This document shows positions 3,547-63,919 of a DNA stretch of 64,000 nucleotides, in pieces. The position numbers and the translations under genes were made by a program. The DNA comes from a virus. The notes under the pieces are model-generated. The model saw only the letters and a list, made by a program, of their open reading frames with translations. It was not told the origin of the DNA and did no database searches. Positions within the stretch are counted from its first letter, which is position 1; each line of letters begins with the position of its first letter. Location of the stretch: the IMG/VR virus record IMGVR_UViG_3300045988_142974, positions 108,868-172,867 of that record. The stretch is one strand, 5' to 3'.

Positions 3547-3638
3547 TGATTGTATTAAACATTGGAGTTTTCTTAATCTGTCTTGGTGTATGCTTTGGAG
3601 CAGGTTTTATCGTGGGAAAACGTAAGAAGAATAAATAA
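3546..3638 (+). CDS. 30-aa hydrophobic peptide (candidate)
   Basis: ATG overlaps upstream stop (TAATG); MIVLNIGVFLICLGVCFGAGFIVGKRKKNK = one TM helix plus basic tail; below ORF-track cutoff. Confidence 0.3.
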   Translation: MIVLNIGVFLICLGVCFGAGFIVGKRKKNK

Positions 3639-3774
3639 TTTAAGGGTTGGTAGGTGTTACAGCCTACTAGCTCTATCAAAGGGTAATAAAATAGACCTTT
3701 TAATTTATAAAACGGAGAATATAACATTAGAAACAATTAACAAAAATCAATATAAGAAAGAAGAGGTACAAAAT

Positions 3775-5838
3775 ATGGACGGATTTATGATGTTTAAAAA
3801 GGCTTTGCAGAAGCACTTCGATGAAATGCAGAAAGAGGCTACACATTTATTTGAGGTAAATGTAGATAAGGATGAATTATGGAATACATATCTTGATAGC
3901 TTTCCTGCCGGTACAAATGAGATTTTCAGAGAGCGTAGAGAACATGATTGCAGTTGTTGTAGACAGTTTATCAAGAATATTGGTTCTGCTGTCACCATTA
4001 AGGATAATCAGATTCACACAATCTGGGAACTGAATCTTGGTGATACAACATATCAGCCAGTATGCGATGCACTTGACGCTTTTGTAAAGGCTCATATAGT
4101 TACAGATATTTATACAACTAAGTTCCCTAAGATTGGTACAGATTTTAATTTTGAGGAAATCAATGGAAAGTCTCATAAGTGGGATCATTTCTTCTTAGAG
4201 CTTCCAAGTAAGTTTGTAAATAGAAGTAGCCGTTCCAACGAGGAAGTTAAAGGACAGTTCAGAGATACAAGAAATGTATTTAAGCGTTCTCTTGATGAGA
4301 TTACTATGGATGCACTCGATACAATTCTTGAACTTATCAACTCAAATACACTTTACAAGGGTGAAGAATGGAAGGGAGTACTCACAGAATTTAAGAAGTA
4401 TAAGAAGGAATACGATAAGCTGGCTTCTGATACTGAAAAGGATTTATATGCTTGGGAGAAGTCGGTAACGGCAGGTATGGCTATCGGTAGAATTAGAAAT
4501 CATTCTATTGGAACACTTCTTATCAATGTAAGTGAGGATATGGATCTTGACACAGCAGTTAAGAAGTATGAGCAGATTGTCGCTCCAAGTAATTATAAAA
4601 GACCAAAGGCTATTTTTACAAAGAAAATGCTTGAGGATGCAAAGAAGACCATTACAGAACTCGGTTATATGGATTCATTACAGAGAAGATTTGCTAATCT
4701 GAATGATATTACTGTAAATAATGTACTGTTCTCAAATAAGAGTGCTGCAAGAAGAATGGTAGGTGCAGATGATATTTTTGGTCAGATGGAAAAGGATGTT
4801 GCTGTAAGTCCTAAGAAGTTTTCTAAGGTTGAAGAGATTTCAGCACAGGATTTCATTGATAAGGTACTTCCAACTGCAAAGGAGATTGAAGCTTTTGTAG
4901 AGAATAAACATGAGAAGAACTTTGTTTCTATGATTGCACCTGTAAATCCAGATGCTAAGACAATGTTTAAATGGAACAATGGATTATCTTGGGCTTATTC
5001 AGGAAACATCACCGACTCTGATATGAAGCAGAATGTAAAAGCTGCTGGCGGTAATGTTGACGGTGTTCTTAGATTTTCAATCATGTGGAATGAAGGACAG
5101 AATGATAACAGCGATCTTGATGCGCATTGTAAAGAACCTGATGGTAACGAGATTTATTTCAGTAATTGTAGAAAACCAGAAACTTCAAGATGTGGAGGTC
5201 AGTTAGATATTGATATTACACGCCCTATGACGCAGATGGCAGGAAAACCTTCTGTGGAAAATATTACATGGGCAGATATGTCACGTATGAAGCCAGGTGT
5301 TTATAAGTTTTTTGTTAATCAGTTTGCAGCGAGAGGAAGTAAAGGATTTAAGGCAGAAATTGAATTCAATGGTGAGATTTTTGCGTTTGAATACAATAGT
5401 CCTGTTTCTGGTAATGTTCAGGTGGCAGAAGTTACACTTGACGAGAATGGCAACTTCTCAATTAAGGAAAAGCTGTCTGGAAGTTCATCTATTTCAAGTC
5501 GTGAAATTTGGGGTGTAAATACAAATCAGTTTGTTCCTGTATCAGTAATTAGTTACAGTCCAAACTATTTTGACGAGCAGGATGGAATTGGTCATAGACA
5601 TTTATTTTTCTTCCTGAAGGATTGTGTAAATAGCGAAGAGCCTAATGGATTCTATCTTGAGTTCCTTGATAATGATTTAATGAAGCATAAGAGAGTGTTC
5701 GAGGCTTTAGGTGCTAAGTGTCATGTAGAAGATACTGATGATCAGCTTTCAGGAATTGGTTTTTCGATGACAAAGAGAGCAGATTTAGTTGTTAAGGTTA
5801 AGGGCGCAATAGAGCGTGTAATGAAGATTAAGTTTTAA
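3775..5838 (+). CDS. 687-aa protein of unknown function; possible divergent TerD-like C-terminal domain
   Basis: Track ORF 3583-5838 trimmed to ATG 3775 (AAGAGG 8 nt upstream). HDCSCCRQF Cys cluster near N-terminus. C-terminal LRFSIMWN..DLDAHC..GGQLDIDI parallels TerD motif order. Confidence 0.7.
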   Translation: MDGFMMFKKALQKHFDEMQKEATHLFEVNVDKDELWNTYLDSFPAGTNEIFRERREHDCSCCRQFIKNIGSAVTIKDNQIHTIWELNLGDTTYQPVCDALDAFVKAHIVTDIYTTKFPKIGTDFNFEEINGKSHKWDHFFLELPSKFVNRSSRSNEEVKGQFRDTRNVFKRSLDEITMDALDTILELINSNTLYKGEEWKGVLTEFKKYKKEYDKLASDTEKDLYAWEKSVTAGMAIGRIRNHSIGTLLINVSEDMDLDTAVKKYEQIVAPSNYKRPKAIFTKKMLEDAKKTITELGYMDSLQRRFANLNDITVNNVLFSNKSAARRMVGADDIFGQMEKDVAVSPKKFSKVEEISAQDFIDKVLPTAKEIEAFVENKHEKNFVSMIAPVNPDAKTMFKWNNGLSWAYSGNITDSDMKQNVKAAGGNVDGVLRFSIMWNEGQNDNSDLDAHCKEPDGNEIYFSNCRKPETSRCGGQLDIDITRPMTQMAGKPSVENITWADMSRMKPGVYKFFVNQFAARGSKGFKAEIEFNGEIFAFEYNSPVSGNVQVAEVTLDENGNFSIKEKLSGSSSISSREIWGVNTNQFVPVSVISYSPNYFDEQDGIGHRHLFFFLKDCVNSEEPNGFYLEFLDNDLMKHKRVFEALGAKCHVEDTDDQLSGIGFSMTKRADLVVKVKGAIERVMKIKF

Positions 5839-5859
5839 TTAGAAAAGGAGATTATTATT

Positions 5860-6249
5860 ATGACAAACAACGAATTATTTATCAATGCAACAAGAGCAAA
5901 CTATCAGTTCCCATTCAGAGGAATGATTAACGTAATTGATTTGTGGGATTTATCTCTCACAAATCTGGACTCAGTGTTTAAGACACTCAATGCAGAAGTA
6001 AAGAAGTCTGAGGAAGAAAGTCTTCTAAATACCAAGTCAAAGGAAGATGAGGAGATTTCTAACAAGATTGAAATTGTTAAGTATATTGTTGACGTGAAGC
6101 TGGATGAGAAGAAGAAGAGAGAAGACGCTAAGAAAAATGCTGAGATGAGACAGAGATTGCTTGAAATCAAAGCTAAGAGACAGGATGCAGCACTTGAGAA
6201 TATGTCTGATGAGGATCTGGATAAGGCACTTGCAGAATTAAGTGAGTAA
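5860..6249 (+). CDS. acidic/lysine-rich coiled-coil protein, unknown function
   Basis: SD AAGGAG 8 nt upstream; 129 aa; no motif recognised. Confidence 0.6.
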   Translation: MTNNELFINATRANYQFPFRGMINVIDLWDLSLTNLDSVFKTLNAEVKKSEEESLLNTKSKEDEEISNKIEIVKYIVDVKLDEKKKREDAKKNAEMRQRLLEIKAKRQDAALENMSDEDLDKALAELSE

Positions 6250-6310: not shown

Positions 6311-6423
6311 ATTTTACATTAGAATGAATCGCACATTTCTTTATGAAATAGATAATTTAATACATATATTAGAAAAATTCAAAAAAGAATGTCCTGAGCA
6401 TATTGGAGAATGGAGATAACATT

Positions 6424-6972
6424 ATGACGAATAAAGAGCAAAATAATTTAAGCAAATACATAGCATTAATTCTTAGACACAGACCTGATGTTATTGGTAT
6501 CGCATTAGATGAACATGGTTGGGCTAACGTGTCAGATCTATTAAAAGGAATCAATAAAACTCAGACGATTACAATGAAAATGCTTGAAAAAATTGTAGAA
6601 GAAGATTCTAAACAGAGATATTCATTTAATCGAGAGAAGACGCTTATAAGAGCAAATCAAGGTCATTCTATAAAAGTTGATGTAGAATTGAAAGAGTGTA
6701 TGCCACCAGATATTTTATATCATGGAACGGGTGTCAAATATTGCTCTTCAATCAATAAACAAGGGTTAATATCCAAGAGTCGTTTATATGTCCATCTATC
6801 AAAAGATATTGAAACAGCAACAAATGTTGGCAGTAGACATGGAGAACCGTTTATTTATAAGGTTCGAGCAAAAGATATGTATAATGATGGATATAAATTC
6901 TTTTTATCTCAAAATGGGGTATGGCTTACAAAAGAAGTACCAATCTGTTATTTAGATGCGTTCTCGAAATAA
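6424..6972 (+). CDS. kptA: RNA 2'-phosphotransferase, Tpt1/KptA family
   Basis: [32 protein letters not shown] and ANQGHS, LYHGT motifs typical of KptA; start moved to ATG 6424 after GGAGA. Confidence 0.85.
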
Positions 6973-7043
6973 GGACAACAAGGACATTCCAAACTTCAAG
7001 GAACGAGTTGAAACAGATATATAAAATTTTGGAGGTTAAGACA

Positions 7044-8072
7044 ATGACAATTGAACAGATTAAGGACAAATTAAAATCAAAAGAGTATGACTTCCTGAGA
7101 ACAGATAAGAATTTGGGTAACAATATCATTATCTTAACTCTTGGTGGAAGTTATGCATATGGAACAAATAATGAGGGTAGCGATTTAGATATTCGTGGTT
7201 GTGCTTTGAATAGCAAGATGCAGATTCTTACAAATGAGAATTTTGAGCAGTTTGTAAACAATGAGACAGACACAACCATTTATGCCTTTAATAAGTTAGT
7301 AGCTTTGTTAAGTAATACAAACCCTAACACAATAGAAATGCTTGGAAATAAGCCAGAACACTATTTCTATGTATCTCCTATTGGTCAGGAACTTATTGAC
7401 AATGCGCATTTATTTTTATCAAAGAGAGCTTGTCATTCGTTTGGCGGTTATGCTAATCAGCAATTATACAGATTAAATCAGAAAGCTGCACATCAGATGT
7501 CGCAGTCTGAATTAGAGAAACATATTCTAAAGACTCTTGAATTTATGCAGACTGACTTCACAAAGAAATATACACCATATGAAGATGATTCTATGAAATT
7601 ATATATTGATAAAGCTGTGCAGGAAGGCTACGATACAGAAATCTTTATGGATATAAATCTTCATCATTACCCATTAAGAGATTATTGTTCTATGTGGAAT
7701 GAGCTTCAGAATACAGTTCGTCAATATGGAAAAATTGGTAAGAGAAATGAAAAAGCAATTGAACATGGTAAAATTGCTAAACATTCAATGCATCTTATTC
7801 GACTGTATATGATGTGCTTAGATATTCTTGAAAAAGAAAGAATAATTACATACAGAGAAGATGAGCATAATTTACTAATGGATATTCGCAATGGCAAGTA
7901 TTTGGATAGCAACGATCAGCCAATCCCAGAATTCTTTGAAATGGTAAATGATTATGAAAAGAGATTAGATTATGCGAAGAAAAACACAAGTCTTCCTGAT
8001 AATCCTAATTATAAGGCTATCAATGAATTTGTTGCTAGTGTAAATGAAAGGGTGGTAAAAGGTGAAATCTAA
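7044..8072 (+). CDS. Pol-beta-fold nucleotidyltransferase (resembles the RlaP / PF10127 RNA-repair-associated type as I recall it)
   Basis: ILTLGGSYAYGTNNEGSDLDIRG = GS-x-YG...SDxD NTase signature; start at ATG 7044 after GGAGG (track ORF 6921 overlaps kptA). Confidence 0.7.
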   Translation: MTIEQIKDKLKSKEYDFLRTDKNLGNNIIILTLGGSYAYGTNNEGSDLDIRGCALNSKMQILTNENFEQFVNNETDTTIYAFNKLVALLSNTNPNTIEMLGNKPEHYFYVSPIGQELIDNAHLFLSKRACHSFGGYANQQLYRLNQKAAHQMSQSELEKHILKTLEFMQTDFTKKYTPYEDDSMKLYIDKAVQEGYDTEIFMDINLHHYPLRDYCSMWNELQNTVRQYGKIGKRNEKAIEHGKIAKHSMHLIRLYMMCLDILEKERIITYREDEHNLLMDIRNGKYLDSNDQPIPEFFEMVNDYEKRLDYAKKNTSLPDNPNYKAINEFVASVNERVVKGEI

Positions 8073-9429
8073 TTTGAAGATTGAAATTCCATCTGGTGCA
8101 AATGAAATTATCCATAGTCTACAAAATAATGGATATGAAGCTTTCTTAGTCGGAGGATGTGTAAGAGATAGTATTCTTGGCAGACCAATTCACGATTATG
8201 ACATTACAACTTCTGCCACGCCAGATGAGATGATGGAAGTATTCAAGGACAAGAGAATTATTGAAACTGGATTACAGCATGGAACTATCACAATTTTAAT
8301 TGACGGTGAAGGATATGAATGTACCACTTACAGAATTGACGGTAATTACTCAGATAGTCGTAGACCTGATAGCGTAACATTTACACGAAATCTTAAAGAA
8401 GATTTAAAGCGTAGAGATTTTACAATTAATGCAATGGCTTACAATGATGAAGTTGGTCTTATAGATCCGTTTAATGGTATGGAAGATATTAAATACCACA
8501 AGATTAGATGTGTTGGCAGAGCAGAAGACAGATTTTCAGAAGATGCATTAAGAATTTTACGTGCCATTCGGTTTGCCTCACAGTTGGGATTTGTCCTTGA
8601 ACCTGATACAGATTGGCATATTTCTAAAATGTATAAGAATTTGGAGAATATATCTATTGAAAGGATCAATAGTGAATTTTGTAAAATTGCTGCATCGAGT
8701 GATTTCTGTGTACAAATGGTCTTATATCACGAAGTATTCTCGTTGTTCATTCCTGAAATTAAAGATATGTTTGGTTTTCAACAGAATAATCCATATCACA
8801 TGTATGATGTATGGAATCATACCGTACATGCAATAGAATATTGTGAATCCGATGATTTAGTAACAAGATTGGCAGTATTCTTTCACGATTTTGGTAAGCC
8901 ACACTGTTATCAAGATGGAGAAGATGGTATCAGACACTTTAAAGGTCATGGAAGAGTAAGTGCTGATATGACCAATGAGATTATGAAACGTCTTAGATTT
9001 GACAATGATACAAGAGAAAAGGTCATTGAATTAGTCTATTATCATGATGCTACTTTTGAGGTGGGAAAGAAATATGTCAAGAGATGGCTTAATAAAATTG
9101 GAGAAGAACAGTTCAGAAGGTTATTAAATGTTCGTAGAGCTGATATTAAAGCACAAGCAGACATGGCTCAGGAAACAAGATTACAGAAAATTGATAACAT
9201 CGAATATATTTTAGAAGAAGTCTTACAGGATGATGAATGTTTTTCTCTAAAGGATTTAGCAGTTAATGGAAAAGATGTAATGGATACAATGCTCATTAAA
9301 AGTGGAAAAGAAGTTGGCTACTGGCTCAATGAAATCTTAACTCGTGTAATAGATGGGAGATTAAAAAATGATAAAGAGGATCTTATTTATTGGATGACTG
9401 GTATTACAGATGGTTGGATAGAATATTAA
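8062..9429 (+). CDS. cca: CCA-adding tRNA nucleotidyltransferase with HD domain
   Basis: GGCVRDSILGRPIHDYDITT, RRDFTINAMA head-domain motifs; FHDFGKP HD motif; GTG start overlaps upstream stop by 11 nt. Confidence 0.85.
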   Translation: MKSNLKIEIPSGANEIIHSLQNNGYEAFLVGGCVRDSILGRPIHDYDITTSATPDEMMEVFKDKRIIETGLQHGTITILIDGEGYECTTYRIDGNYSDSRRPDSVTFTRNLKEDLKRRDFTINAMAYNDEVGLIDPFNGMEDIKYHKIRCVGRAEDRFSEDALRILRAIRFASQLGFVLEPDTDWHISKMYKNLENISIERINSEFCKIAASSDFCVQMVLYHEVFSLFIPEIKDMFGFQQNNPYHMYDVWNHTVHAIEYCESDDLVTRLAVFFHDFGKPHCYQDGEDGIRHFKGHGRVSADMTNEIMKRLRFDNDTREKVIELVYYHDATFEVGKKYVKRWLNKIGEEQFRRLLNVRRADIKAQADMAQETRLQKIDNIEYILEEVLQDDECFSLKDLAVNGKDVMDTMLIKSGKEVGYWLNEILTRVIDGRLKNDKEDLIYWMTGITDGWIEY

Positions 9430-9439
9430 CGGAGGTAAT

Positions 9440-10180
9440 ATGTACGAAAAATTAAAAGAATATATAAAAGAATCAAATAATATTGTATTCTTTGGTGGAG
9501 CAGGTGTATCAACTGAAAGTGGTATTCCTGATTTTCGTTCCAAGGATGGATTATATAATCAGCATGACGTTCAGTTTGATAAATACGAACCAGAATATCT
9601 TTTGAGTAGAGAATGTTTATATAATAATCCAAAGATATTTTATGAGTTCTATCGTCAGAAGATGGATACAAGAAATGTTGAACCAAACGTTACTCATAAG
9701 GTGCTTGCTAAGATGGAAGAAATAGGTAAGTTGAAAGCTATTGTAACACAGAATATTGATGGACTTCATCAGAAAGCTGGAAGTAAGAATGTCTTTGAGA
9801 TTCATGGAACTACTCAGAAGAATTATTGTAGTAAGTGTAAGATGAAATATCATTCTGATTTCTTGTTTAACACTAAAGATGCTATTCCAAAGTGTGAATG
9901 TGGTGGGCTGATTAGACCTGATGTGACTTTATACGGAGAGAATCTTCCTAACGAAGCTGTAAATGGAGCAATCAGAGCTATTCGAGATGCTGAAATGTTG
10001 ATTATTGGTGGCACTTCATTAAAAGTTTATCCAGCAGCTCATTATATTTCATATTTTAGTGGTAGACATTTGGTTGTTATCAATATGGAGAAAATTCAAG
10101 TGTTGTTGAATGAGGATACAGATCTGATGATTGTTGATTCGTTAGGTAATGTGTTCAGTGAAATTGATAAATGGATGTGA
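9440..10180 (+). CDS. NAD+-dependent protein deacylase, Sir2 family (canonical sirtuin)
   Basis: FFGGAGVSTESGIPDFRS, TQNIDGLH, catalytic EIHG, Zn ribbon CSKC...CECG. Confidence 0.9.
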   Translation: MYEKLKEYIKESNNIVFFGGAGVSTESGIPDFRSKDGLYNQHDVQFDKYEPEYLLSRECLYNNPKIFYEFYRQKMDTRNVEPNVTHKVLAKMEEIGKLKAIVTQNIDGLHQKAGSKNVFEIHGTTQKNYCSKCKMKYHSDFLFNTKDAIPKCECGGLIRPDVTLYGENLPNEAVNGAIRAIRDAEMLIIGGTSLKVYPAAHYISYFSGRHLVVINMEKIQVLLNEDTDLMIVDSLGNVFSEIDKWM

Positions 10181-13620: not shown

Positions 13621-14403
13621 ATGGCATATATAAAACAATATTGGCAGAATAAAGAACAAAGAGCGACAATTGCTCGTGAACACACAAAAGAGATGCGGAA
13701 TAAATATGGTCGTTGTATTCAAACTTCAATTTTGGGTACAAAAATTTATGATACAAATTCATTTAATAGGGATTTTGAAGAGAATATCGAAGATAAAGAT
13801 ACCAAGATTATTGTAGAGGATATTGATAGTGTAGGTGCTGTAATGAAATACGGCAATCCAAGTACAGCAGTTCTTAATTTTTCTTCATATAAAAATCCAG
13901 GTGGAATGTTTTTAAATGGTAGTAAGGCACAGGAAGAGTGCTTATGTCACGAATCATTCTTATACAATGTGTTGAGTCAGTTTGTATTAAAGTTTTATGA
14001 TTGGAATAATCGACATAAGAATAAGGCTTTATATTTGAATAGAGGATTATTTTCTCCCGGTGTTTGGTTCTTTAGAGAGAATAGCCATGTAGAGTGTAGT
14101 GTTATTACTTGTGCTGCTCCAAATAAGTCGGCTGCTCAGAAATATCAGAACGTGTCAGACGAAGAGAATACTAAAGCATTAAGAAGTCGAATTAAATTTG
14201 TTCTTAATATGGCGAAAGACAACAATGTGAGCACTCTTATTTTAGGAGCTTATGGATGTGGAGTATTTGGGCAAGACGCAACAGAAGTAGCGAATATATT
14301 TAAAGAATATTTAACTACTACTCATAAATGCTTCGATACTGTTGTATTTGCTGTTCCAAATGGCAGAGATGGTAACTATGAGAAGTTTGTAAAAGTATTT
14401 TAA
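13621..14403 (+). CDS. PARG-like macrodomain protein (TIGR02452-type)
   Basis: VLNFSSYKNPGGMFLNGSKAQEECLCHESFLY, ITCAAPN, LILGAYGCGVFGQD match my recollection of the TIGR02452 macrodomain family. Confidence 0.75.
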   Translation: MAYIKQYWQNKEQRATIAREHTKEMRNKYGRCIQTSILGTKIYDTNSFNRDFEENIEDKDTKIIVEDIDSVGAVMKYGNPSTAVLNFSSYKNPGGMFLNGSKAQEECLCHESFLYNVLSQFVLKFYDWNNRHKNKALYLNRGLFSPGVWFFRENSHVECSVITCAAPNKSAAQKYQNVSDEENTKALRSRIKFVLNMAKDNNVSTLILGAYGCGVFGQDATEVANIFKEYLTTTHKCFDTVVFAVPNGRDGNYEKFVKVF

Positions 14404-19661: not shown

Positions 19662-19666
19662 AAATC

Positions 19667-19709: not shown

Positions 19710-19748
19710 AAAGCAAAGTAAAACCACGTTTCATTTAAGGAGGTAAAA

Positions 19749-20634: not shown

Positions 20635-20638
20635 TAGT

Positions 20639-20890: not shown

Positions 20891-20894
20891 CAAT

Positions 20895-21173
20895 ATGAAC
20901 AAAAGACAGAAAAAGAAGTTATTTAAACAGACACTTATTAAGGTTAGAAAACTGCATCCACAGAAGGGTGATGTGATTTGTTTTCAACCAGATTTAGATT
21001 GGATTGATGCTGAAACTATGTGCCAGTTTATGAAAGTTTATTCGAATAATGATGTTTTCGGTAAATTGAAGTTAGCTTTTGTACCTGCTGATATTAAGCA
21101 GCTTAGACATAAAGGGGACGCTCAGATATATATTGATAAGTTACAGAGTATTGTAAATCAGATGGGAGAATAA
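20895..21173 (+). CDS. hypothetical protein
   Basis: GGAGAATAA junction SD. Confidence 0.5.
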   Translation: MNKRQKKKLFKQTLIKVRKLHPQKGDVICFQPDLDWIDAETMCQFMKVYSNNDVFGKLKLAFVPADIKQLRHKGDAQIYIDKLQSIVNQMGE

Positions 21174-21380
21174 ATGATTAAAAATAAGGCTTTAGCACAA
21201 ATTTTAAAGAATCAATATTTAATTTTATATTATTTACGACACTGCGAGTCTTGTAAAAATCTAATGGAGGACATTAATGAAATTACTGATAACGCATTAA
21301 TAAAAACTGAATATTTTACAGACAAATTGTTGCATAGAAGGCGAACAAGAAAGAAGCATTTCCTTCAAGTTTTTGAATGA
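21174..21380 (+). CDS. hypothetical protein
   Basis: ATG abuts upstream stop (GGGAGAATAAATG). Confidence 0.45.
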   Translation: MIKNKALAQILKNQYLILYYLRHCESCKNLMEDINEITDNALIKTEYFTDKLLHRRRTRKKHFLQVFE

Positions 21381-21423: not shown

Positions 21424-23622
21424 ATGAGAGTATTACTTTTATTAAGAGGCTCTGCTGGTTGTGGAAAATCAACTTGGATTGAGCAGAATGGATTAAAGTC
21501 ATATGCATTATCAGCGGATGATATTAGATTACTGTGTCAGAGTCCAGTATTACAACCTGATGGAACAGTAGGGATTAGTCAGAGTAATGATAAAACCGTT
21601 TGGAAGACATTGTTTAATTTACTTGAAATTCGTATGCAGAAAGGTGAGTTTATAGTAATTGATGCTACAAATTCAAAAACATCTGAGATAAACAGATATA
21701 AGCAGATGTGTGAAACATACAGATATAGGATGTATTGTGTCGATTTTACAGATATTCCAATTGAAGAAGTAAAGAAAAGAAATGTCAACAGAGAGGAATT
21801 AAAGAGAGTTCCTGATGAAGCAATCGAAAAAATGTATTCACGTTTCAAGACTCAGAAAATTCCTTCTGGTATTAAGGTAATTAAGCCAGATGAGTTAGAT
21901 TCTATTTGGATGAAGTTATTTGATTTATCTGAATATAAGAAAATTCATCATATCGGAGACGTTCATGGTTGCTATACAGCGTTAAAGAAATATATTGATG
22001 ACAATGGCGGTATTAAAGATGATGAATTTTACATCTTCTGCGGTGATTATGTAGATAGAGGTATTGAAAATGCTGATGTTGTTAAGTATCTGATTTCTAT
22101 TAAGGATAAGAAAAATGTCCTTATGCTTGAAGGAAATCATGAAAGATGGCTTTGGTTATGGGCTAATGATTGTACAAGTAAGTCTAAAGAATTTGAACTT
22201 GTAACAAAGCCACAGTTAGAAGAAGCAAAGATTGATAAAAAGGATGTACGTCAGCTTTATAGAAAATTTGGACAGTGTGCTTATTATAGATATGGAGAAA
22301 ATATTTATTTAGTAACTCATGCAGGTTTAAGTGTATTACCAGATAATCTTACATTTGTTGCAACAGATCAGATGATTCATGGAGTTGGTAATTACAATGA
22401 TTTTGAAAAAATTGCAGAGACATTTGCTGAAAAAATGCCATCAAATTATTATCAAATTCATGGTCATAGAAACACTAAACAAGTTCCAATTCGTGTGAAT
22501 GATAGAGTATTTAATCTTGAAGGAAGAGTTGAATTTGGTGGGAATTTAAGATGTGTTCAGCTTGATAAAGATGGTATGTACGAAATAGAAATTCATAATG
22601 AAGTATTCAAAACACCCGAAATGAGAGAAGAACAGAGTGTAACAAATAGTTCTGTTGCTGATGTAATTATTTCATTAAGAGCAAATAGATACATTCAGGA
22701 AAAGAAATTTGGTAATATTTCTTCTTTCAATTTTACGAACAAGGCTTTTTACGACAAGGTATGGGACGAGCAGACTACAAAAGCAAGAGGTTTATATCTT
22801 GACACATTTAAGGGAAAGGTAGTAGCAAGGGCTTATGATAAGTTCTTTAACATCAACGAGCGACCAGAAACAAAATTTGATATGCTACAGAATAAGCTTC
22901 AATTCCCTGTTACAGCATATGTAAAAGAAAATGGTTATTTAGGTATTGTAAGCTACGATGAATACAATGATGATTTATTTATTGCAAGTAAATCTACTAT
23001 TGACAGTCAGTTTGCACAATGGCTCAAAGAAGCTATTTACAATCAGATTACAGAAGAAAATAGAGAAAAAATGAAACAGTATGCGAAAGATAATAATGTG
23101 TCATTTGTATTTGAAAATGTTGATATGAAAAATGATCCGCATATTATTGAATATCTTGAAAGTAAGTTATATCTATTAGATATTGTTTATAATCAGATGG
23201 ATTTTGCTAAATATGATTATGAAACTATGTGTGATATTGCTCATCAGCTTGGATTAACTCCAAAAGAAAAAGCATTTGAGATTGCTAATTGGCAGGATTT
23301 TTATGATTGGTACTATGATATTCTTGAAGAGGATTATGAATACAATGGTAGAAAAATTGAGGGATTTGTAATCGAAGATAGTGTTGGATATATGACAAAA
23401 CTGAAGCTTGCATATTATAACTTTTGGAAGTTTATGAGAGCAATTTCACATGAAGCTATTAGAAATGGATATATTAAAAAGACATCTGCTTTAACAACTC
23501 CTATTGCTAATGAGTATTATGCATGGGTAAGAAAGTTGCATGATGTCGATGATATTGATTCAATTCCAAAAGATATTTGTACATTGAGAAGATTATTTTT
23601 TAAAGACAAATTAGGAGAATAA
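21424..23622 (+). CDS. polynucleotide kinase / metallophosphatase / RNA-ligase-like fusion (Pnkp-like RNA repair enzyme)
   Basis: P-loop GSAGCGKST; calcineurin-type GDVHG, GDYVDRG, GNHE, GH; C-terminal nucleotidyltransferase motif I YVKENGYLG (KxNG). Confidence 0.8.
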   Translation: MRVLLLLRGSAGCGKSTWIEQNGLKSYALSADDIRLLCQSPVLQPDGTVGISQSNDKTVWKTLFNLLEIRMQKGEFIVIDATNSKTSEINRYKQMCETYRYRMYCVDFTDIPIEEVKKRNVNREELKRVPDEAIEKMYSRFKTQKIPSGIKVIKPDELDSIWMKLFDLSEYKKIHHIGDVHGCYTALKKYIDDNGGIKDDEFYIFCGDYVDRGIENADVVKYLISIKDKKNVLMLEGNHERWLWLWANDCTSKSKEFELVTKPQLEEAKIDKKDVRQLYRKFGQCAYYRYGENIYLVTHAGLSVLPDNLTFVATDQMIHGVGNYNDFEKIAETFAEKMPSNYYQIHGHRNTKQVPIRVNDRVFNLEGRVEFGGNLRCVQLDKDGMYEIEIHNEVFKTPEMREEQSVTNSSVADVIISLRANRYIQEKKFGNISSFNFTNKAFYDKVWDEQTTKARGLYLDTFKGKVVARAYDKFFNINERPETKFDMLQNKLQFPVTAYVKENGYLGIVSYDEYNDDLFIASKSTIDSQFAQWLKEAIYNQITEENREKMKQYAKDNNVSFVFENVDMKNDPHIIEYLESKLYLLDIVYNQMDFAKYDYETMCDIAHQLGLTPKEKAFEIANWQDFYDWYYDILEEDYEYNGRKIEGFVIEDSVGYMTKLKLAYYNFWKFMRAISHEAIRNGYIKKTSALTTPIANEYYAWVRKLHDVDDIDSIPKDICTLRRLFFKDKLGE

Positions 23623-27257: not shown

Positions 27258-27270
27258 AAAGAGGTGCAAT

Positions 27271-27456
27271 ATGAAAAGATATGAACTTTATATTACTGGT
27301 AAAAGAACTATCGACTTAGAAGATTATAAAGATATTGGCGAGTATGTAAATAATATCATTGAAGGAAATGGCGAAGAAGATGGATATCAGGATTTAGACG
27401 AACTTTTGGATGATATGGAATACGAGACATTAAACTATAGGAAAATTGTTTGTTAA
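27271..27456 (+). CDS. hypothetical acidic protein
   Basis: ATG 27271 after AGAGGTG. Confidence 0.5.
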   Translation: MKRYELYITGKRTIDLEDYKDIGEYVNNIIEGNGEEDGYQDLDELLDDMEYETLNYRKIVC

Positions 27457-27468
27457 ATATTAAAATTT

Positions 27469-27492
27469 GGCAAGAAATTTTTCTTTCTTGGG
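27469..27492 (+). promoter_or_regulatory. dyad motif copy
   Basis: ggcaagaaa tttttc tttcttggg (7-bp perfect arms CAAGAAA/TTTCTTG); runs into GGAGGTGA SD. Confidence 0.65.
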
Positions 27493-27503
27493 AGGTGATT
27501 AAT

Positions 27504-27686
27504 ATATTTCATAGAGAGAGAACTAAAGTCGAAAATGGATGCGATTGTTGGGGAAAACCGGAATATGATGATGTATATGAAGTTTATTATAATGATGAAT
27601 TTGTATGTCGTATGTCAAGTGATCCAATAGTATTGGTGGATAAGATAAATGATGTTTTAATTAATTATAGGAGAATGACTATATAG
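27504..27686 (+). CDS. hypothetical protein; candidate ATA start (track ORF 27450-27686)
   Basis: Track TTG 27450 would read through the dyad motif and SD. In-frame ATA 27504 lies 5 nt after GGAGGTGA (27491-98). No in-frame ATG until far downstream. Confidence 0.4.
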   Translation: MFHRERTKVENGCDCWGKPEYDDVYEVYYNDEFVCRMSSDPIVLVDKINDVLINYRRMTI

Positions 27687-27732
27687 GATAGCTAATTGAT
27701 AAAACAGTATTATGAAAATCGGAGGGAAAAGA

Positions 27733-27936
27733 ATGAAAAGAGGAGATATTATTGAATTAATTGAGGATACAACATTTTATAAAAAAGGTAAGAAGGCTTA
27801 TTTTATTGGTAGATCGAATTTTAATCCTAATAATATCGAAATTGTTTGGGTTGGTGAAGAACAAGCTTATAAAGATGGCGATATAGATGAATTTCCAGCT
27901 AGATTGTTTAAGCAGGTGGAACATGGCGATAGGTGA
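27733..27936 (+). CDS. hypothetical protein
   Basis: ATG 27733 after GGAGGG. Confidence 0.5.
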   Translation: MKRGDIIELIEDTTFYKKGKKAYFIGRSNFNPNNIEIVWVGEEQAYKDGDIDEFPARLFKQVEHGDR

Positions 27937-28210
27937 TGGAAGAAAAACATATTCCGACAGTACATTAAAATCTATAACAAAAGATAAACTGATTGATATT
28001 ATTCGCTGCTTAGAAAGTAATCTCAGAAATGCTTATGAGACAAATGATATTCAGTATGAGCATTGTAAGAGGTTACTGAGTGAAGAGAAGAATAAAACTC
28101 TTGATGAAGTTCTAAAGGCTTGTGACATTGAATGTGGACTTTATAGTGGTGATGTTAAAAATCTTACAAGACATGTTTTGATGAGAGTATTAGATAGATT
28201 GAGAGAATAA
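27923..28210 (+). CDS. hypothetical protein
   Basis: ATG 27923 after AGGTGGA. Confidence 0.5.
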   Translation: MAIGDGRKTYSDSTLKSITKDKLIDIIRCLESNLRNAYETNDIQYEHCKRLLSEEKNKTLDEVLKACDIECGLYSGDVKNLTRHVLMRVLDRLRE

Positions 28211-28239
28211 ATGTAAATAAAATAGAAAGGATATAGAGT

Positions 28240-28971
28240 ATGTATACAGAGCAGAACAGAGGGTTTACTGTGATAACAAATTTTGGATGTGATTGCCATT
28301 GTAAATATTGTATTACAAAGCATCATCCAATTTTGCAAAATGCGGTAACTGATAAAAATAAAATAGATTGGGAGCATTTAGAGAAGTGTATTTCTGAATC
28401 AAATGCACCTACTGTTAATTTATCAGGTGGTGGAGATCCATTTTATGATTGGCAGAATAATATTGATTTTTACAATCATATGTATGAACTGGCTACAAAA
28501 TATGGAAAGAAGCTAGATATACATACTCGTATTCTTCCTACAGATATGGATTTGATTAAAAAGTTTAGAAAGATTGCCTTAAGCATTGAGCCTTACGATA
28601 CAAGAGCAATGGAACGATTGCAAGTCATATTACCTGAGATTGAGAAAACTACTAAGTTGAGAGTTATTAATGTACTAAATGAAAGAATGACTACAGAAGA
28701 TTGTCTTGATTATATAAACAAGATGCACAATATTGGTGTTAAGCAGATTACGTTTAGACAGATGTTTGGTAATAAAAATGCATATCAGAACTTCTTAAAT
28801 ATCAAAAACACCATCAATATTCCAGGTGTTATGTTCCTACCAGATGGTGAATATCATCATTACTATTTCACAACCAATAACAAGCTTTATCCATATTTCT
28901 TTGGTTATACAGAGAATGATAGAAAGGTGTGGATGAAGAAATATGAAGAAATTGAACAATATTGTGGTTGA
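28240..28971 (+). CDS. radical SAM enzyme (small, unassigned subfamily)
   Basis: NFGCDCHCKYC gives CxxxCxxC (C17,C21,C24); LSGGGDP glycine-rich SAM motif. Confidence 0.75.
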   Translation: MYTEQNRGFTVITNFGCDCHCKYCITKHHPILQNAVTDKNKIDWEHLEKCISESNAPTVNLSGGGDPFYDWQNNIDFYNHMYELATKYGKKLDIHTRILPTDMDLIKKFRKIALSIEPYDTRAMERLQVILPEIEKTTKLRVINVLNERMTTEDCLDYINKMHNIGVKQITFRQMFGNKNAYQNFLNIKNTINIPGVMFLPDGEYHHYYFTTNNKLYPYFFGYTENDRKVWMKKYEEIEQYCG

Positions 28972-29371
28972 TCCATATCTTAATGATGATATGTGTATAG
29001 ATCGCTTGGTTGAAAATTGGAAACTACACAATGGAATAATAATTGCATTTGATTTTGATAATACAATTTTTGATTACTATGACAAAGGATATAGGTATGA
29101 CAAAGTTATTACTCTATTAAGAGAATGTAAAGATATGGGATGTACATTGATTCTCAGTACATGTTGTGACGAATCAAAATTTGAATTTATGGAGAATAAA
29201 TGTATAGAGGTTGGAATTCATATTGATTACATAAATGACTCACCACCTTATATCCCTTTCACTGGCAATAAAATCTATTACAACATTATGTTAGACGATA
29301 GAGCTGGTTTGAGTGCAGCTTATAAAATTTTGTATGAGACAAAGGAGAGAATTAAAAATGAAACATTTTGA
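28943..29371 (+). CDS. HAD-superfamily phosphatase (nucleotidase-like)
   Basis: IAFDFDNTIFD (DxDxT motif I), MLDDRAG (motif IV); overlaps both neighbours. Confidence 0.65.
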   Translation: MKKLNNIVVDPYLNDDMCIDRLVENWKLHNGIIIAFDFDNTIFDYYDKGYRYDKVITLLRECKDMGCTLILSTCCDESKFEFMENKCIEVGIHIDYINDSPPYIPFTGNKIYYNIMLDDRAGLSAAYKILYETKERIKNETF

Positions 29372-30335
29372 ATTAGTAAAAGAGTACGCATATCCAAGTG
29401 GTAGTGTTTATGTTCTTTATAATAAAGAAAAGAATTTCTACATTGAAACTACTTCTATGCAGGATGTAAATACAAAAGGAAAATCTCAGGAAATCATTAT
29501 GACAGATGATGCAGATTTGATTAAAAAGAATCTCGTTCCGTTTGAGGAAAAGTGGCTTACAGCGATTAGTACACAGTACGGATGTCCACAGCATTGTCAG
29601 TTCTGTTTAGTACCAGAGTTAGGATTTCACGGAAATCTTTCTACAGAAGAAATGTGGGAACAGCTTGAATTTGTATTTAATCAGCATCCACAGGTCACAA
29701 AGAGCGACAAGATTAAAGTGGGCTTTGCACGTATGGGAGAACCACAATATAACTGGAAAAATATTTTACAGGTAATGAGAGATATGAAAACTTATAGAGA
29801 AGGATTTACTTTCTTGCCTTGCTACAACACAATTCTTCCTAAAGTGAAAGTATTTGGTAAGAGTCCAGTTGATGTTCTGAAGGACGAAGTTATGTCTGTA
29901 AAAGAGTATCTTGACGGATTTATGCACATTCAAATTTCAACAAATAGCACAAATGAAGATGAGAGAAAGTATCTGTTTGGTGGTGCTGATGTTGTAACTA
30001 TCGAAGAGATGAAGAAAGAATTTAATAATATGCCGAATAACAATAGACTTATCACTCTGAATTTTATTTGTGGAGCAGGATGGGAACTTGATCCAAACAA
30101 GTTATATGGTCTTGATCCGAATGTGTTTTGTGTTAAAATTACACCTCTTAATACAACGACAGCTACTAAGGAGCATGGTCTTGAAGATGCAATTCAGTGG
30201 AATTGGGAGAATATGAATAAGATTAAAGAAAAGGTTGAGAGTTGTGGTCTAAAGGTAGTTGTAGATGTAGCTGCTAAAGCAGAATTACCATTATGCTGTG
30301 GTAACTTGGTTCAGGATTATAAAAAGAATAGATAG
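29358..30335 (+). CDS. RlmN/Cfr-like radical SAM methyltransferase homologue
   Basis: ISTQYGCPQHCQFCLVPELGFHGNLSTEEM, ARMGEPQYN, IQISTNSTNEDER, KITPLNT, LPLCCGNL parallel E. coli RlmN blocks as I recall them; ATG 29358 after AAGGAGAG. Confidence 0.7.
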   Translation: MKHFELVKEYAYPSGSVYVLYNKEKNFYIETTSMQDVNTKGKSQEIIMTDDADLIKKNLVPFEEKWLTAISTQYGCPQHCQFCLVPELGFHGNLSTEEMWEQLEFVFNQHPQVTKSDKIKVGFARMGEPQYNWKNILQVMRDMKTYREGFTFLPCYNTILPKVKVFGKSPVDVLKDEVMSVKEYLDGFMHIQISTNSTNEDERKYLFGGADVVTIEEMKKEFNNMPNNNRLITLNFICGAGWELDPNKLYGLDPNVFCVKITPLNTTTATKEHGLEDAIQWNWENMNKIKEKVESCGLKVVVDVAAKAELPLCCGNLVQDYKKNR

Positions 30336-30357: not shown

Positions 30358-30409
30358 AAAATCTAAACAGAGAATATATCTATAGATTAAATGTTTGGAG
30401 GAAAAGACA

Positions 30410-31063
30410 ATGGCATACATATATAGGTACACTGATTTAGTGGATAACATAATCAAATATGTTGGAATAGTATGGTCTGACAACAGAAGTTTAGAAGATA
30501 GACTGTATGAACATGAATTAAGAGATGACTGGTGTAGAACAAGAAAATGGAAAATTGAATACTTAACAGAGAATATTACAACAAGAACTGATGCTGAGTA
30601 TTTTGAAGCACATTACATTAGTTTGTATCAAACAGATAAATATTTTAATGTTTCTAAAGCAGGTTGGGGTGTAAGTTCATTTTTACCAAATAGAGAAAAT
30701 GATTGGGTAGAATTTATACAAAAGCCAATTGCATTAAAACAGAATTTGTCAGATTTGAGACTAACAATAATGGAAGAAAAGCGTAAGCTCAATAAACTTC
30801 AGTTTGAGATCGAGGATAAGAATAAAGAGTTGGATAAGCTTGCGTGTAATATAAATTACTGTCTTGATTCATCTAATAATTTCACTCTTAACTCTAGTGA
30901 ATTAATAAAAAGATTAGATGAGAAAAGAGCCACGTATGAAGATTTCCAATATGGAATTACAAGTAAATCCTCGATTAATAAATGGATATATAGAGAAGAA
31001 GGAATTAGAGCTGCAATTTCGATAGTAAAAGAATATCTTTTGGATATGAAGTGTGCAGTTTAA
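30410..31063 (+). CDS. GIY-YIG domain protein (possible free-standing homing endonuclease)
   Basis: YIYRYTDLVDNIIKYVGIVWSDNRSLEDRLYEHE fits the GIY-(10)-YVG...R...E pattern; coiled-coil C-terminus. Confidence 0.5.
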   Translation: MAYIYRYTDLVDNIIKYVGIVWSDNRSLEDRLYEHELRDDWCRTRKWKIEYLTENITTRTDAEYFEAHYISLYQTDKYFNVSKAGWGVSSFLPNRENDWVEFIQKPIALKQNLSDLRLTIMEEKRKLNKLQFEIEDKNKELDKLACNINYCLDSSNNFTLNSSELIKRLDEKRATYEDFQYGITSKSSINKWIYREEGIRAAISIVKEYLLDMKCAV

Positions 31064-32317: not shown

Positions 32318-33175
32318 ATGCCAGTGCATGATGATTTAGGCGTTAGGATGAAGACATTTTATGAGCAGATTTCAAAGATAAAACTGATGAGAAGGTGTCC
32401 GGTTGCTATCAGAATTGATGGAAAAGCGTTCCACACATTCACAAGAGGATTTCAGAAGCCATTTGATGAAGTGCTAATTAAATCAATGCAGGAAACAATG
32501 AAATACTTATGTGAGAATATTCAGGGCTGTGTTCTTGGCTACACGCAGTCAGATGAGATTACATTAATCCTTGTTGATTATAAGAAGCTCACATCTTCAG
32601 CATGGTTTGATTACGAGGTACAGAAGATTTGCAGTATTGCGGCGAGTATGGCTACGATGGCATTTAATAAAGCTTTTGTAAAAGAAGTTAAAAAATATTC
32701 TTTTGAACTTAGTATGGGAATTCATACAGATGAAGAAAGAAGATTATTAGATATTTATCATAAAGCTATAGACAAAGGTGCAATGTTCGATGCTCGTTGT
32801 TTCAATATTCCAAAAGAAGAAGTAACAAATCTTTGCTATTGGAGACAATTAGATGCTTCTCGTAACTCAATTCAGATGGTAGGTCAAGCCAATTTCTCAC
32901 ATAAAGAATTACAGAATAAGTCATGTAATGATATTCAGGATATGCTTATGAGTCAGAAAGGTATTAACTGGAACGATTTGCCTACTTATCAGAAGAGAGG
33001 AAGTTGCTGTGTAAGGAATAAGATTATCATTGAATCTGATGGTGTTATGGCAACTGCACAATTAAGAGACACTTCTAGGTCTGAAAATGAGTGGATTATT
33101 GATACAGATATCCCTATTTTCAAAGGTGAAGGTAGAGAATATATTGATAGATTAGTTTTTGTTGGTGAAGAGTAA
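32318..33175 (+). CDS. Thg1-like protein (tRNA-His guanylyltransferase family, 3'-5' polymerase)
   Basis: VAIRIDGKAFHTFTRGFQKPFD, GYTQSDEITLIL, FDARCF, YWRQLDASRNS match Thg1/TLP blocks. Confidence 0.85.
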   Translation: MPVHDDLGVRMKTFYEQISKIKLMRRCPVAIRIDGKAFHTFTRGFQKPFDEVLIKSMQETMKYLCENIQGCVLGYTQSDEITLILVDYKKLTSSAWFDYEVQKICSIAASMATMAFNKAFVKEVKKYSFELSMGIHTDEERRLLDIYHKAIDKGAMFDARCFNIPKEEVTNLCYWRQLDASRNSIQMVGQANFSHKELQNKSCNDIQDMLMSQKGINWNDLPTYQKRGSCCVRNKIIIESDGVMATAQLRDTSRSENEWIIDTDIPIFKGEGREYIDRLVFVGEE

Positions 33176-62737: not shown

Positions 62738-63919
62738 ATGGGTAAATCATTAAATGGGAAAGAACTTGGACAAGGCATATCTCAAAGAAAGGATGGACTT
62801 TATCAAGCAAGGTTTACTAATAGGTTTGGAAAGAGACAAACTATATATTCAAAATCAATAACAGAACTCAGAGCAAAATTAAGAGATAAGCAATATGAAG
62901 ATTCTAATGAGTTGAATGTAATTAATAATGAAATTACATTAGATGAGTGGTTTGATAAGTATATGAAAGTACATTCACCTTCATATAGACCTAATACAAT
63001 ATCCAATTATATTGGTGGTTATAATCGTATTAAGGTTGATCTTGGTTGGAGAGTTATGAAAGATATCAATGTTATAACTTTTCAAGAATCATTCAATAAA
63101 CTAACATCGGATGCCAGTAGAAAAAACACCAAAAAAGTGTTAATGAATCTTTATAAATATGCTTTAGATTGTAATGTTGTTAAAACCGTTAACCCTATTC
63201 AACAGGTTAAGACGAAATTAACCGATGTTGGAGTCAAAATAAGAGTTTTAACAAGAAAAGAAACAGAACTATTCTTAGAAAACGGTGAAGGTATTGCACA
63301 TTTTCCATTATTTGAATTAGCACTTGAGACAGGTATGCGTATTGGAGAAATATGTGGACTTCAATGGGAGGACATAGATTTTGATCATAGAATGATACAT
63401 GTAAGACATACTTTAACATATGCTAAACAAGATGGTTTGTGGGGATATAAGTTCCAGTTAAATGAACCTAAAACTGAAAATGGAATAAGAAAAATTCCTA
63501 TGACCAAGAAAGCTGAAGAATTATTAAGTGAACAAAAAATCAGATGGGAAAAAGTTAATGATAGATGTGTTGCGACAGTTGGGTATGAAAATTTGGTATA
63601 CGTCACAAAAAGAAACACCCCTATCTGTACTAGAAATACAACTGTTTCAATAAGAAGAATAGAAGAAAGAATTAAGGCTAAGGGAATTGATTTTGAACCT
63701 ATAACACCACATACTTTAAGACATACATTTGCAACTCGTTGCTTAGAGAATGGTATGAATGTAAAAACACTTCAAAGAATTCTTGGACATGCTGATATAA
63801 GAACAACAATGAATACTTATTGTCATGTTACAGATGATGAATTATATTCGGCAATGAATGTGTTTGAACAAAAAGGAATTTTAAACACTAATACTCCAAA
63901 TGGTGTAAAAGTGGTGTAG
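62738..63919 (+). CDS. int: tyrosine recombinase / phage integrase
   Basis: ETGMRIGE, HTLRHTFATRCLENG, LGHADIRTTMNTYCH (R..HxxR..Y). Confidence 0.9.
   Translation: MGKSLNGKELGQGISQRKDGLYQARFTNRFGKRQTIYSKSITELRAKLRDKQYEDSNELNVINNEITLDEWFDKYMKVHSPSYRPNTISNYIGGYNRIKVDLGWRVMKDINVITFQESFNKLTSDASRKNTKKVLMNLYKYALDCNVVKTVNPIQQVKTKLTDVGVKIRVLTRKETELFLENGEGIAHFPLFELALETGMRIGEICGLQWEDIDFDHRMIHVRHTLTYAKQDGLWGYKFQLNEPKTENGIRKIPMTKKAEELLSEQKIRWEKVNDRCVATVGYENLVYVTKRNTPICTRNTTVSIRRIEERIKAKGIDFEPITPHTLRHTFATRCLENGMNVKTLQRILGHADIRTTMNTYCHVTDDELYSAMNVFEQKGILNTNTPNGVKVV

Follow-up and report, generated by a model that had tools for sequence, protein, structure and literature searches.

We analyzed a 64,000-nucleotide (nt) stretch of viral DNA (positions 108,868 to 172,867 of the IMG/VR record IMGVR_UViG_3300045988_142974; hereafter the window, numbered from its first letter). 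One of its genes had been predicted from the letters alone to encode a phage-borne Thg1-like protein (TLP), a 3'-5' polymerase that would complete a tRNA repair kit. The open reading frame (ORF) in question, at positions 32318-33175 of the plus strand, runs from ATG to stop and encodes 285 amino acids (aa). A Shine-Dalgarno-like GAGAGG lies 8 nt 5' of the ATG. All four motifs quoted in the original prediction are present in the protein: RIDGKAFHTFT at residues 32-42, SDEITL at 78-83, FDARCF at 157-162, and YWRQLDASRN at 174-183. The protein matched the Pfam Thg1 profile (PF04446) over positions 3-130 of 130 with 107.7 bits (E=5.1e-31; gathering cutoff, 29.2 bits) and PHROG 4717, "tRNA-His guanylyltransferase," with E=5.5e-89. 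In a phmmer comparison with the Protein Data Bank (PDB), the best match was 4KGK, the TLP of Bacillus thuringiensis (BtTLP; E=9.5e-63). An archaeal TLP (5AXK, 2.3e-13), yeast Thg1 (5XOX, 1.7e-12), and human THG1 (3OTB, 1.7e-8) were matched more weakly. By these E values, its sequence is closest to bacterial TLP, with archaeal TLP and eukaryotic Thg1 more distant. Judged from sequence comparison, the predicted Thg1-family membership is confirmed, with matches far above chance, and the ORF is assigned to the bacterial type of TLP, not to eukaryotic-type Thg1. A look-up of the 285-aa protein returned no identical-protein record, and megablast of the region against GenBank phages gave no match.

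The functional residues of BtTLP (PMC3701042) were transferred to the phage protein via a HMMER alignment; the two proteins are 50% identical over 229 aligned residues. E12, R28, D30, F34, H35, and K43 of BtTLP correspond to identical residues E16, R32, D34, F38, H39, and K47, and D75, E76, K99, R131, R147, and M158 to D79, E80, K103, R160, R176, and M187. The sole change among the mapped functional residues is R16, which is K20 in the phage protein. In Thg1/TLP enzymes, three carboxylates serve two-metal catalysis, and all three are in place. M187 is the TLP state of a position at which eukaryotic Thg1 has Asn (N161 of yeast Thg1, ScThg1), and in the HMMER alignment the THINNLYN stretch of yeast Thg1 is replaced by ASRNSI. 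The eukaryotic-type signature, a HINNLYN-type motif with Asn at the N161 position, is thus absent.

The active site is also conserved in relatives. Across 108 diverse relatives, sampled from the 5,636 clusters (50% identity) that make up the family, the functional residues are near-invariant, and the catalytic carboxylates are kept in 102-105 of them. For the phage's own clade, we used a sample of 80 IMG/VR loci. Here, catalytic residues are kept in 66-68 of 68 aligned sequences and M187 in 67 of 68. A D34N or D79N substitution, which would inactivate the enzyme, is present in one or two of the clade's sequences. The gene is intact and under purifying selection, with a median pairwise dN/dS (ratio of nonsynonymous to synonymous substitution rates) of 0.18 against clade members and a frame that is intact in at least 67 of the 80 clade loci, the other 13 being unconfirmed by extraction. 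At one clade locus (L133), a stop follows 16 codons from the aligned start; either a disruption of the copy or an offset in extraction could account for it.

An AlphaFold (AF2) model, for which a 42-sequence alignment was the input, had a predicted local distance difference test score (pLDDT) of 92 and a predicted template modeling score (pTM) of 0.87. Its top Foldseek match was 4KGM, with a target-normalized template modeling (TM) score of 0.92 and a root mean square deviation of 2.4 Å. All 32 PDB matches at E<=1e-3 were Thg1/TLP structures, which supports a polymerase-like palm fold for the modeled protein. Residues ~121-154, a segment of ~34 aa missing from BtTLP, form a helical hairpin in the model, and residues 243-256 form a low-confidence loop of ~13 residues. 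We considered the ~34-residue insertion as a distinctive feature of the phage TLP and rejected it: the segment is a hypervariable hairpin present in most relatives, and BtTLP represents a short variant. From its residues and modeled fold, the protein is predicted to be catalytically competent, and we are highly confident that it is an active bacterial-type TLP.

The neighborhoods of related TLP genes were then compared. In the clade sample, TLP, RlaP, CCA-adding enzyme, and SIR2 genes are contiguous at two loci (L134 and L148) and TLP, RlaP, and CCA-adding enzyme genes at a third (L157). RlaP lies 79 bp 3' of the TLP gene in L153 and also adjoins it in L160 and L161. In L159, the TLP gene directly follows orf751-orf129, the gene pair that precedes KptA-RlaP-CCA in the window, and a PARG/Macro homologue is found at +5.3 kb. 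The clade flanks are otherwise highly mosaic, and only one neighboring ORF is common, in 33 of the 80 loci. A downstream gene for a 118-aa protein was examined as a conserved TLP partner and rejected, being found in close relatives only (7 of 80 clade loci, 0 of 80 genome loci).

A more distant sample comprised 80 GTDB genome loci, mostly from gut Clostridia, with TLPs 38-70% identical to the phage protein. All neighboring ORFs of these loci were clustered de novo, and the clusters were annotated with Pfam. At least one end-healing or -sealing gene neighbors the TLP gene in 51 of the 80 loci. The commonest neighbors were three Metallophos families (22, 13, and 6 loci) and an AAA_33 polynucleotide kinase (PNK)-like kinase (9 loci), followed by RNA ligase (7 loci, at a median of 218 bp), HD (7), RlaP (6), NADAR (6), and PARG/Macro (6 loci, median 91 bp). 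All recurrent repair-type neighbors are on the strand of the TLP gene. They are also closer to it than other ORFs are (median 1.8 versus 3.8 kb; Mann-Whitney p=1.5e-6). In deposited phages, Fusobacterium phage Fnu1 carries a TLP together with the same kinase-phosphoesterase-ligase fusion that is encoded in the window, and the TLP gene of mycobacteriophage Bombitas lies ~600 bp from a PNK gene. Across deposited phages, co-occurrence was compared as host-genus counts, and TLP and CCA-adding enzyme counts coincide in Prevotella (Lak) phages (15/15) and Caulobacter phages (13/13). Three independent lines, from clade loci, GTDB loci, and deposited phages, point to a functional tie between the TLP and repair genes. 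Comparative neighborhoods thus support a role of the TLP in RNA repair. TLP-RlaP-CCA(-SIR2) is a mobile cassette in a populous clade of gut phages, and its description is new from the present analysis.

Two further genes were observed near TLP genes. A gene for an SPFH/Band-7 (prohibitin-like) membrane protein is present at nine of the 80 genome loci (L038, L040-L042, L046, L053, L061, L066, and L085) at a median distance of 1.3 kb, and also ~650 bp 3' of the Fnu1 TLP gene (L013; Fnu1 gp144) and in L095. In L003, a close relative, a PTH2 peptidyl-tRNA hydrolase is encoded at 3762-4175, ~6 kb 5' of the TLP gene. PTH2 is a further gene of translation rescue that appears in published inventories of phage RNA repair.

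The window itself encodes an extended set of RNA-repair proteins (Table 1). The original prediction had grouped a CCA-adding enzyme and a Pnkp-like ligase with the TLP as a kit for three tRNA sites. These partners are real, and both are encoded in the same arm of the phage genome as the TLP, together with KptA. The assignment of positions needed correction, the gene at 6.4 kb being KptA rather than cca and the CCA-adding enzyme gene lying directly downstream of RlaP, and the inventory was too short, since RlaP, SIR2, and PARG/Macro belong to it as well. KptA/Tpt1 enzymes remove the 2'-phosphate at a ligation junction in an NAD+-dependent reaction. The ligase is a fusion protein of 732 aa that matches phrog_8238 over its full length and has homologues in SPbeta-like, Staphylococcus, and Fusobacterium phages. 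By sequence, it unites a 5'-kinase, a phosphoesterase, and a ligase domain in one polypeptide, an arrangement of the heal-and-seal (T4 Pnkp/Rnl1-like) kind. The best PDB matches of its ligase domain are fungal Trl1 tRNA ligases (9QW7, 3.1e-14; 6N0V, 2.3e-10; also 6N67 and 6N0T), so that a predicted Trl1-type ligase domain and Tpt1/KptA, the two components of the Trl1-Tpt1 pathway, are encoded in the same phage. This pairing suggests a eukaryote-style ligation that leaves a 2'-phosphate at the junction. No 2H-family cyclic phosphodiesterase was detected among the ORFs scanned; the healing domain is calcineurin-like (Metallophos). PARG/Macro is a plausible partner of the KptA chemistry. PADLOC matched none of TLP, KptA, RlaP, SIR2, PARG, the ligase fusion, and orf751/orf129 to a defense system.

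Table 1. Genes of the window and functional residues of the TLP
Feature	Position	Strand	Support or remark
P-type cation ATPase, C-terminal part	ORF 22-810	+	Window begins inside the gene; full 866 aa in relatives
orf751 (phrog_1735; DUF8224 in relatives) and orf129 (phrog_2018)	3583..6249	+	Precede the repair module
KptA/Tpt1 RNA 2'-phosphotransferase	6403..6972	+	PF01885 E=1.5e-46; PDB 7KW8 E=2.6e-45
RlaP-family Pol-beta-fold nucleotidyltransferase, predicted 3'-end restoration	6921..8072	+	PF10127 E=1.2e-13; phrog_388
CCA-adding tRNA nucleotidyltransferase with HD domain	8062..9429	+	PolyA_pol head E=4.7e-39, tRNA_NucTran2_2, HD
SIR2-family NAD+-dependent enzyme	9440..10180	+	PF02146 E=3.5e-56; moves together with RlaP-CCA
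Four DNA methyltransferases (one C5, one N4/N6, two Dam-like D12)	11429-12352, 16592-17467, 17541-18275, 18825-19661	+	
Microbial PARG/Macro protein, processing of ADP-ribose derivatives	13621..14403	+	PF10021 E=1.1e-26
Heal-and-seal fusion: AAA_33 5'-OH kinase, calcineurin-like phosphoesterase, Rnl1/Trl1-type ligase (RNA_lig_T4_1)	21424..23622	+	
GIY-YIG endonuclease-like ORF	30395-31063	+	
Bacterial-type TLP, predicted templated 3'-5' RNA nucleotidyltransferase	32318..33175	+	Pfam, PDB, PHROG, residues, model
Catalytic residues of TLP	D34, D79, E80		Counterparts of hTHG1 D29, D76, E77 and BtTLP D30, D75, E76
Nucleotide-binding residues of TLP	E16, K20, R32, F38, H39, K47, K103, R160, R176		
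Tyrosine integrase	62738..63919	+	Last gene; marks the prophage end; Lachnospira chromosomal genes then follow in L011 and L012

The orf751-orf129 pair stands upstream of RNA-repair genes both here and in relatives (L096 and L097 among the loci noted), and the two genes may be additional members of the repair module. Genes of NAD+ and ADP-ribose metabolism cluster with the repair genes: SIR2 adjoins the CCA-adding enzyme gene, and PARG/Macro follows 3.4 kb further on. At two related loci (L094 and L095), NAD+ salvage genes (NAMPT/NAPRTase, NAD synthase, and nicotinamidase) and PARG occupy the KptA-RlaP-CCA slot instead. We regard this slot as a hot spot for counter-defense cargo because relatives swap these genes into it.

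We propose that the TLP belongs to a shuffled RNA-repair module of phages. By homology to BtTLP, it would activate a 5'-monophosphate RNA end with ATP or GTP and extend it in the 3'-5' direction by Watson-Crick pairing to a template, which would be the 3' acceptor strand of a tRNA, its presumed substrate. The outcome would be the rebuilding of 5'-truncated tRNA acceptor stems. In an order of steps that we infer, the 5'-phosphate would come from the kinase domain of the fusion encoded at 21.4 kb, and internal breaks would be healed and sealed by the phosphoesterase and ligase domains of the same protein. Removal of junction 2'-phosphates would fall to KptA with PARG/Macro, and replacement of 3' nucleotides to RlaP and the CCA-adding enzyme. 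The module probably serves to keep the tRNA pool usable under attack by ribonucleases of the host or of competitors. A role of the TLP in RNA or tRNA 5'-end repair within this arsenal is the explanation we favor, with moderate confidence. A narrower version, in which the TLP-RlaP-CCA cassette works as a unit, with the TLP filling the 5' strand in the 3'-5' direction, RlaP filling the 3' strand, and CCA being added last, is speculative and, in our estimate, doubtful.

The biochemistry of BtTLP fits a 5'-end repair role. Templated N+1 addition to 5'-truncated tRNAs is favored 5-160-fold over -1 addition, and the enzyme is neither G-biased nor restricted to tRNA-His (PMC3061083). Templated 3'-5' addition with a kinetic preference for 5'-truncated tRNA is known for BtTLP and archaeal TLPs only. 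The sites cut by the defense and toxin tRNases reported so far lie elsewhere: in the anticodon loop (PrrC, VapC, colicin E5, PARIS, and Cas13) or anticodon arm (OLD), in the T-loop (Cash) or D-loop (type I-A retrons), in the 3' strand of the acceptor stem at 6-7 nt from CCA (retron Eco2), and in the CCA tail (Cas12a3 and HEPN-MNT). The original prediction that the phage could repair every known class of tRNA cleavage was therefore overstated, as none of these tRNases yields a 5'-truncated tRNA.

Several points weigh against the repair role. In the literature searched, we found no nuclease, whether anti-phage or a toxin, whose product is 5'-truncated tRNA, and for this reason the lesion attributed to the TLP is hypothetical; nor did we find a biochemical or genetic study of any phage TLP. 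In the window, the TLP gene is separated from the ligase fusion by 8.7 kb and from the KptA-RlaP-CCA cluster by 23 kb, and its immediate neighbors are small unknown ORFs. The enrichment of repair-type neighbors in the GTDB loci is relative to other ORFs of the same loci, without a matched background of TLP-free prophages. Many TLP-bearing phages, for example Bcp1, have no obvious repair partner nearby, and the host-genus distributions of the four genes compared in deposited phages are largely different, the Prevotella and Caulobacter phages mentioned above being exceptions.

The tRNA genes near TLPs bear on two other explanations. According to its usual annotation, the protein would be a tRNA-His guanylyltransferase that supplies or replaces the G-1 of tRNA-His from host or phage, for instance where processing leaves a phage tRNA-His without this nucleotide. 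BtTLP does add a templated G-1 opposite C73 and weakly complements yeast thg1 (PMC3061083), and Fnu1 has a tRNA-His gene within a cluster of five tRNA genes. However, ARAGORN and Rfam detected no tRNA gene in the 64-kb window, and none was found in the ~20-kb flanks of relatives, so that ~84 kb were examined in total. Among tRNAs within 10 kb of a TLP gene, tRNA-His accounted for 3 of 126 in the 80 GTDB loci and 0 of 25 in the 80 clade loci (3 of 151 overall). In all three tRNA-His genes, the -1 position is already a G (opposite C73 in two cases), and G-1 addition is not required for these tRNAs because the nucleotide is genome-encoded. No cognate tRNA-His lacking an encoded G-1 was found in the window, in the relatives' flanks, or among the neighboring tRNA-His genes. 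M187 and the ASRNSI stretch, which replace the Asn and the HINNLYN motif of yeast Thg1, argue in the same direction. A dedicated tRNA-His G-1 role is thus unlikely, and we give it little weight; action solely on a phage tRNA-His, which the original prediction had named as the outcome that would overturn it, is disfavored by the same data. The TLP might instead serve quality control or maturation of phage tRNA arrays by mending mis-cut 5' ends rather than nuclease damage. In line with this, 25 of the 80 GTDB loci and 10 of the 80 clade loci have tRNA genes within 10 kb of the TLP gene; at 6 loci, a tRNA gene is found within 150 bp. Yet the TLP gene is not significantly nearer to tRNA genes than other ORFs of the same loci are (nearest quartile in 9 of 25; p=0.15), and the ~84 kb examined for the present phage are free of them. 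Editing of the 5' ends of phage tRNAs was rejected, as only 0, 2, and 1 mismatches were found at acceptor positions 1, 2, and 3 of 114 distinct tRNAs, which leaves no substrate of the editing type. We consider the array explanation improbable.

It is also conceivable that the TLP acts on RNAs other than tRNA, by adenylylating or guanylylating 5' ends for the ligase or by extending or capping the 5' ends of other small RNAs or of phage transcripts, or that, instead of lytic growth, it serves the lysogen against tRNases of the colicin or contact-dependent inhibition (CDI) type. A ligation-assisting role via a 5'-App intermediate has been proposed (PMC2904730), the TLP gene is located in a conflict-rich accessory arm (TerD, PspA, SIR2, PARG, and four DNA methylases), and the enzyme is without a known tRNA lesion. 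On the other side, every TLP characterized has tRNA or a tRNA-like acceptor stem as its substrate (PMC3061083; cocrystal 5AXM), and R32, R160, and K103 of the nucleotidyl-transfer site are conserved besides the activation site, which argues for full polymerase chemistry. The probability of such a role is low. The TLP gene could, finally, be a passenger: mobile accessory cargo that has no role specific to this phage and persists through drift or recent transfer. This would agree with the mosaic flanks of the clade but conflicts with the low dN/dS ratio, the frames and catalytic residues kept in most of the clade sequences, and the 318 IMG/VR stretches that encode close relatives. We therefore regard this last explanation as very improbable.

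The tRNA arrays linked to TLP genes had features of their own. A conserved ATAT/TATAT pentamer, which may be a processing or promoter signal, occupies -5 to -1 in front of most of their tRNA genes (L014-L093), and 88 of the 114 encode CCA. In two otherwise related arrays, a tRNA-Arg(tct) (L063, 18301-18377) is matched by a tRNA with a CTA anticodon (L064, 14967-15043), called tRNA-Pyl by ARAGORN. The latter may be an amber suppressor, and the phage could recode TAG. L064 is binned as a Methanobrevibacter metagenome-assembled genome, yet it resembles the phage type of L063.

The claim that the TLP gene is phage-borne was supported. The element is a large temperate prophage (SPbeta/phiCD211-like) of ~160-170 kb from gut Lachnospira. 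This is concluded from the integrase and host junction, the gut viral contigs, the replication module, and the SPbeta/phiCD211-like matches. Beyond the integrase, L011 and L012 encode proteins with identical counterparts named from Lachnospira pectinoschiza / L. intestinalis. Identical or near-identical TLPs are found on viral contigs of 100-206 kb from human gut samples. The replication module (AAA_24, DnaB, PD-(D/E)XK, Pol III alpha, and RecD2) is located 3' of the TLP gene. The best phage matches are SPbeta-like phages for the ligase fusion and phiCD211-like Clostridioides phages for KptA and the CCA-adding enzyme, and the SPbeta markers YorH and YopX were found in relatives of this phage. 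On a 515-kb contig with an identical TLP (L010, region 11535-21182), minus-strand glycosyltransferase and tail-fiber-like genes follow the integrase. This junction, unlike those of L011 and L012, could stem from integration at a different site, from a tandem element, or from an assembly join.

The whole window is coded on the plus strand, with a GC content of 30-37%. At Rfam gathering thresholds, no known RNA family was found in the 64 kb. The first ~36 kb form an accessory "conflict" arm that begins with a P-type ATPase fragment, three TerD genes, a PspA-like gene, orf751, orf129, KptA, RlaP, the CCA-adding enzyme, and SIR2. It continues with a C5 DNA methylase, PARG/Macro, three DNA methylases, and the kinase-phosphoesterase-ligase fusion and ends with a PAPS-reductase-like gene, radical-SAM genes, a GIY-YIG gene, and TLP. 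Positions 1-3546, with the ATPase fragment, the TerD genes in tandem, and the PspA-like gene, constitute a stress or membrane module. The four DNA methyltransferase genes lie within 8 kb and are presumably anti-restriction genes. The PAPS-reductase-like protein and two weakly matched radical-SAM/4Fe-4S proteins, encoded at 26208-30335, possibly form a nucleic-acid modification pathway.

The in-cell role of bacterial-type TLPs has been an open question since the in vitro 5'-repair result of 2010. TLPs recur in phages and prophages with kinases, phosphoesterases, ligases, RlaP, and CCA-adding enzymes encoded next to them, a setting that puts them in the arms race over tRNA. If the repair function holds, there should be nucleases, either immune or toxic, that trim tRNAs at the 5' end, a class not currently recognized. 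If the cassette works as outlined above, it would provide the first biological role for bacterial-type TLPs and predict undiscovered tRNases of the 5' acceptor strand in gut Firmicutes. The homologues from Bacillus, Fusobacterium, and mycobacteriophages are tractable systems for testing TLP function.

The toolkit is neither new nor, as had been suggested, easy to miss. TLP homologues are carried by 164 GenBank phage records and are nearly always annotated, as tRNA-His guanylyltransferase. The carriers of PHROG 4717 include Bacillus phages G and Bcp1, Fnu1, Lak megaphages, Caulobacter phage CcrBL9, Pseudomonas phage 201phi2-1, and Omegavirus mycobacteriophages. In 2010, Anantharaman, Iyer, and Aravind predicted that prokaryotic Thg1 homologues repair tRNA, on the grounds that their genes are linked to those for PNK, Macro, and RNA ligase (PMC2904730), and Iyer et al. 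described in 2021 an RNA-repair repertoire of jumbo phages that comprises Thg1, RNA ligases, PNK, phosphoesterases, RlaP, CCA-adding enzyme, and PTH2 (PMC7824862). Phage TLPs and the RNA-repair-kit concept, Thg1 included, are thus already published, and the present gene adds no new principle. What is added here is the populous TLP-RlaP-CCA(-SIR2) clade, the pairing of a Trl1-like ligase with KptA, and evidence against tRNA-His and editing roles.

Compared with known systems, the phage TLP is closest to BtTLP (4KGK/4KGM; Rao et al. 2010/11, PMC3061083; Hyde et al. 2013, PMC3701042), with which it shares the fold, the carboxylates, the nucleotide-binding residues, and the TLP-specific Met. Like BtTLP, it presumably performs templated 3'-5' addition that favors 5'-truncated tRNAs. 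Unlike BtTLP, it is prophage-encoded and has the longer hairpin at ~121-154 and the 243-256 loop. Most clade members share the long form of the variable hairpin segment. The deposited PHROG 4717 phage proteins belong to the same family and are encoded in early or accessory regions of large phages. Among the matches listed, they are less than 60% identical to the present TLP, whose clade is temperate and resident in gut Clostridia. The mitochondrial TLPs of Dictyostelium and Acanthamoeba likewise perform templated 3'-5' repair of the first acceptor-stem nucleotides. Their substrates, however, carry genome-encoded mismatches at positions 1-3, which are essentially missing from the tRNAs encoded near relatives of the phage TLP.

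The prototype of a phage RNA-repair toolkit is T4 Pnkp with Rnl1, directed against PrrC. The published toolkits (PMC7824862, PMC2904730) and the set described here have a common parts list, including NAD/ADP-ribose domains, and a common proposed purpose, the reversal of tRNA-directed immunity. In contrast to the toolkits of jumbo lytic phages, the present set belongs to a temperate prophage of ~160-170 kb, and kinase, phosphoesterase, and ligase are combined in one protein. A further difference is that the ligase domain is nearest to fungal Trl1 among solved structures and is paired with KptA/Tpt1. As in the Trl1-Tpt1 pathway of fungi and plants, a Trl1-like ligase, a polynucleotide kinase, and Tpt1/KptA are encoded together in the phage genome. 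Unlike fungal and plant Trl1, the phage fusion has a healing phosphoesterase that is calcineurin-like (compare Clostridium thermocellum Pnkp and lambda phosphatase) rather than of the 2H family.

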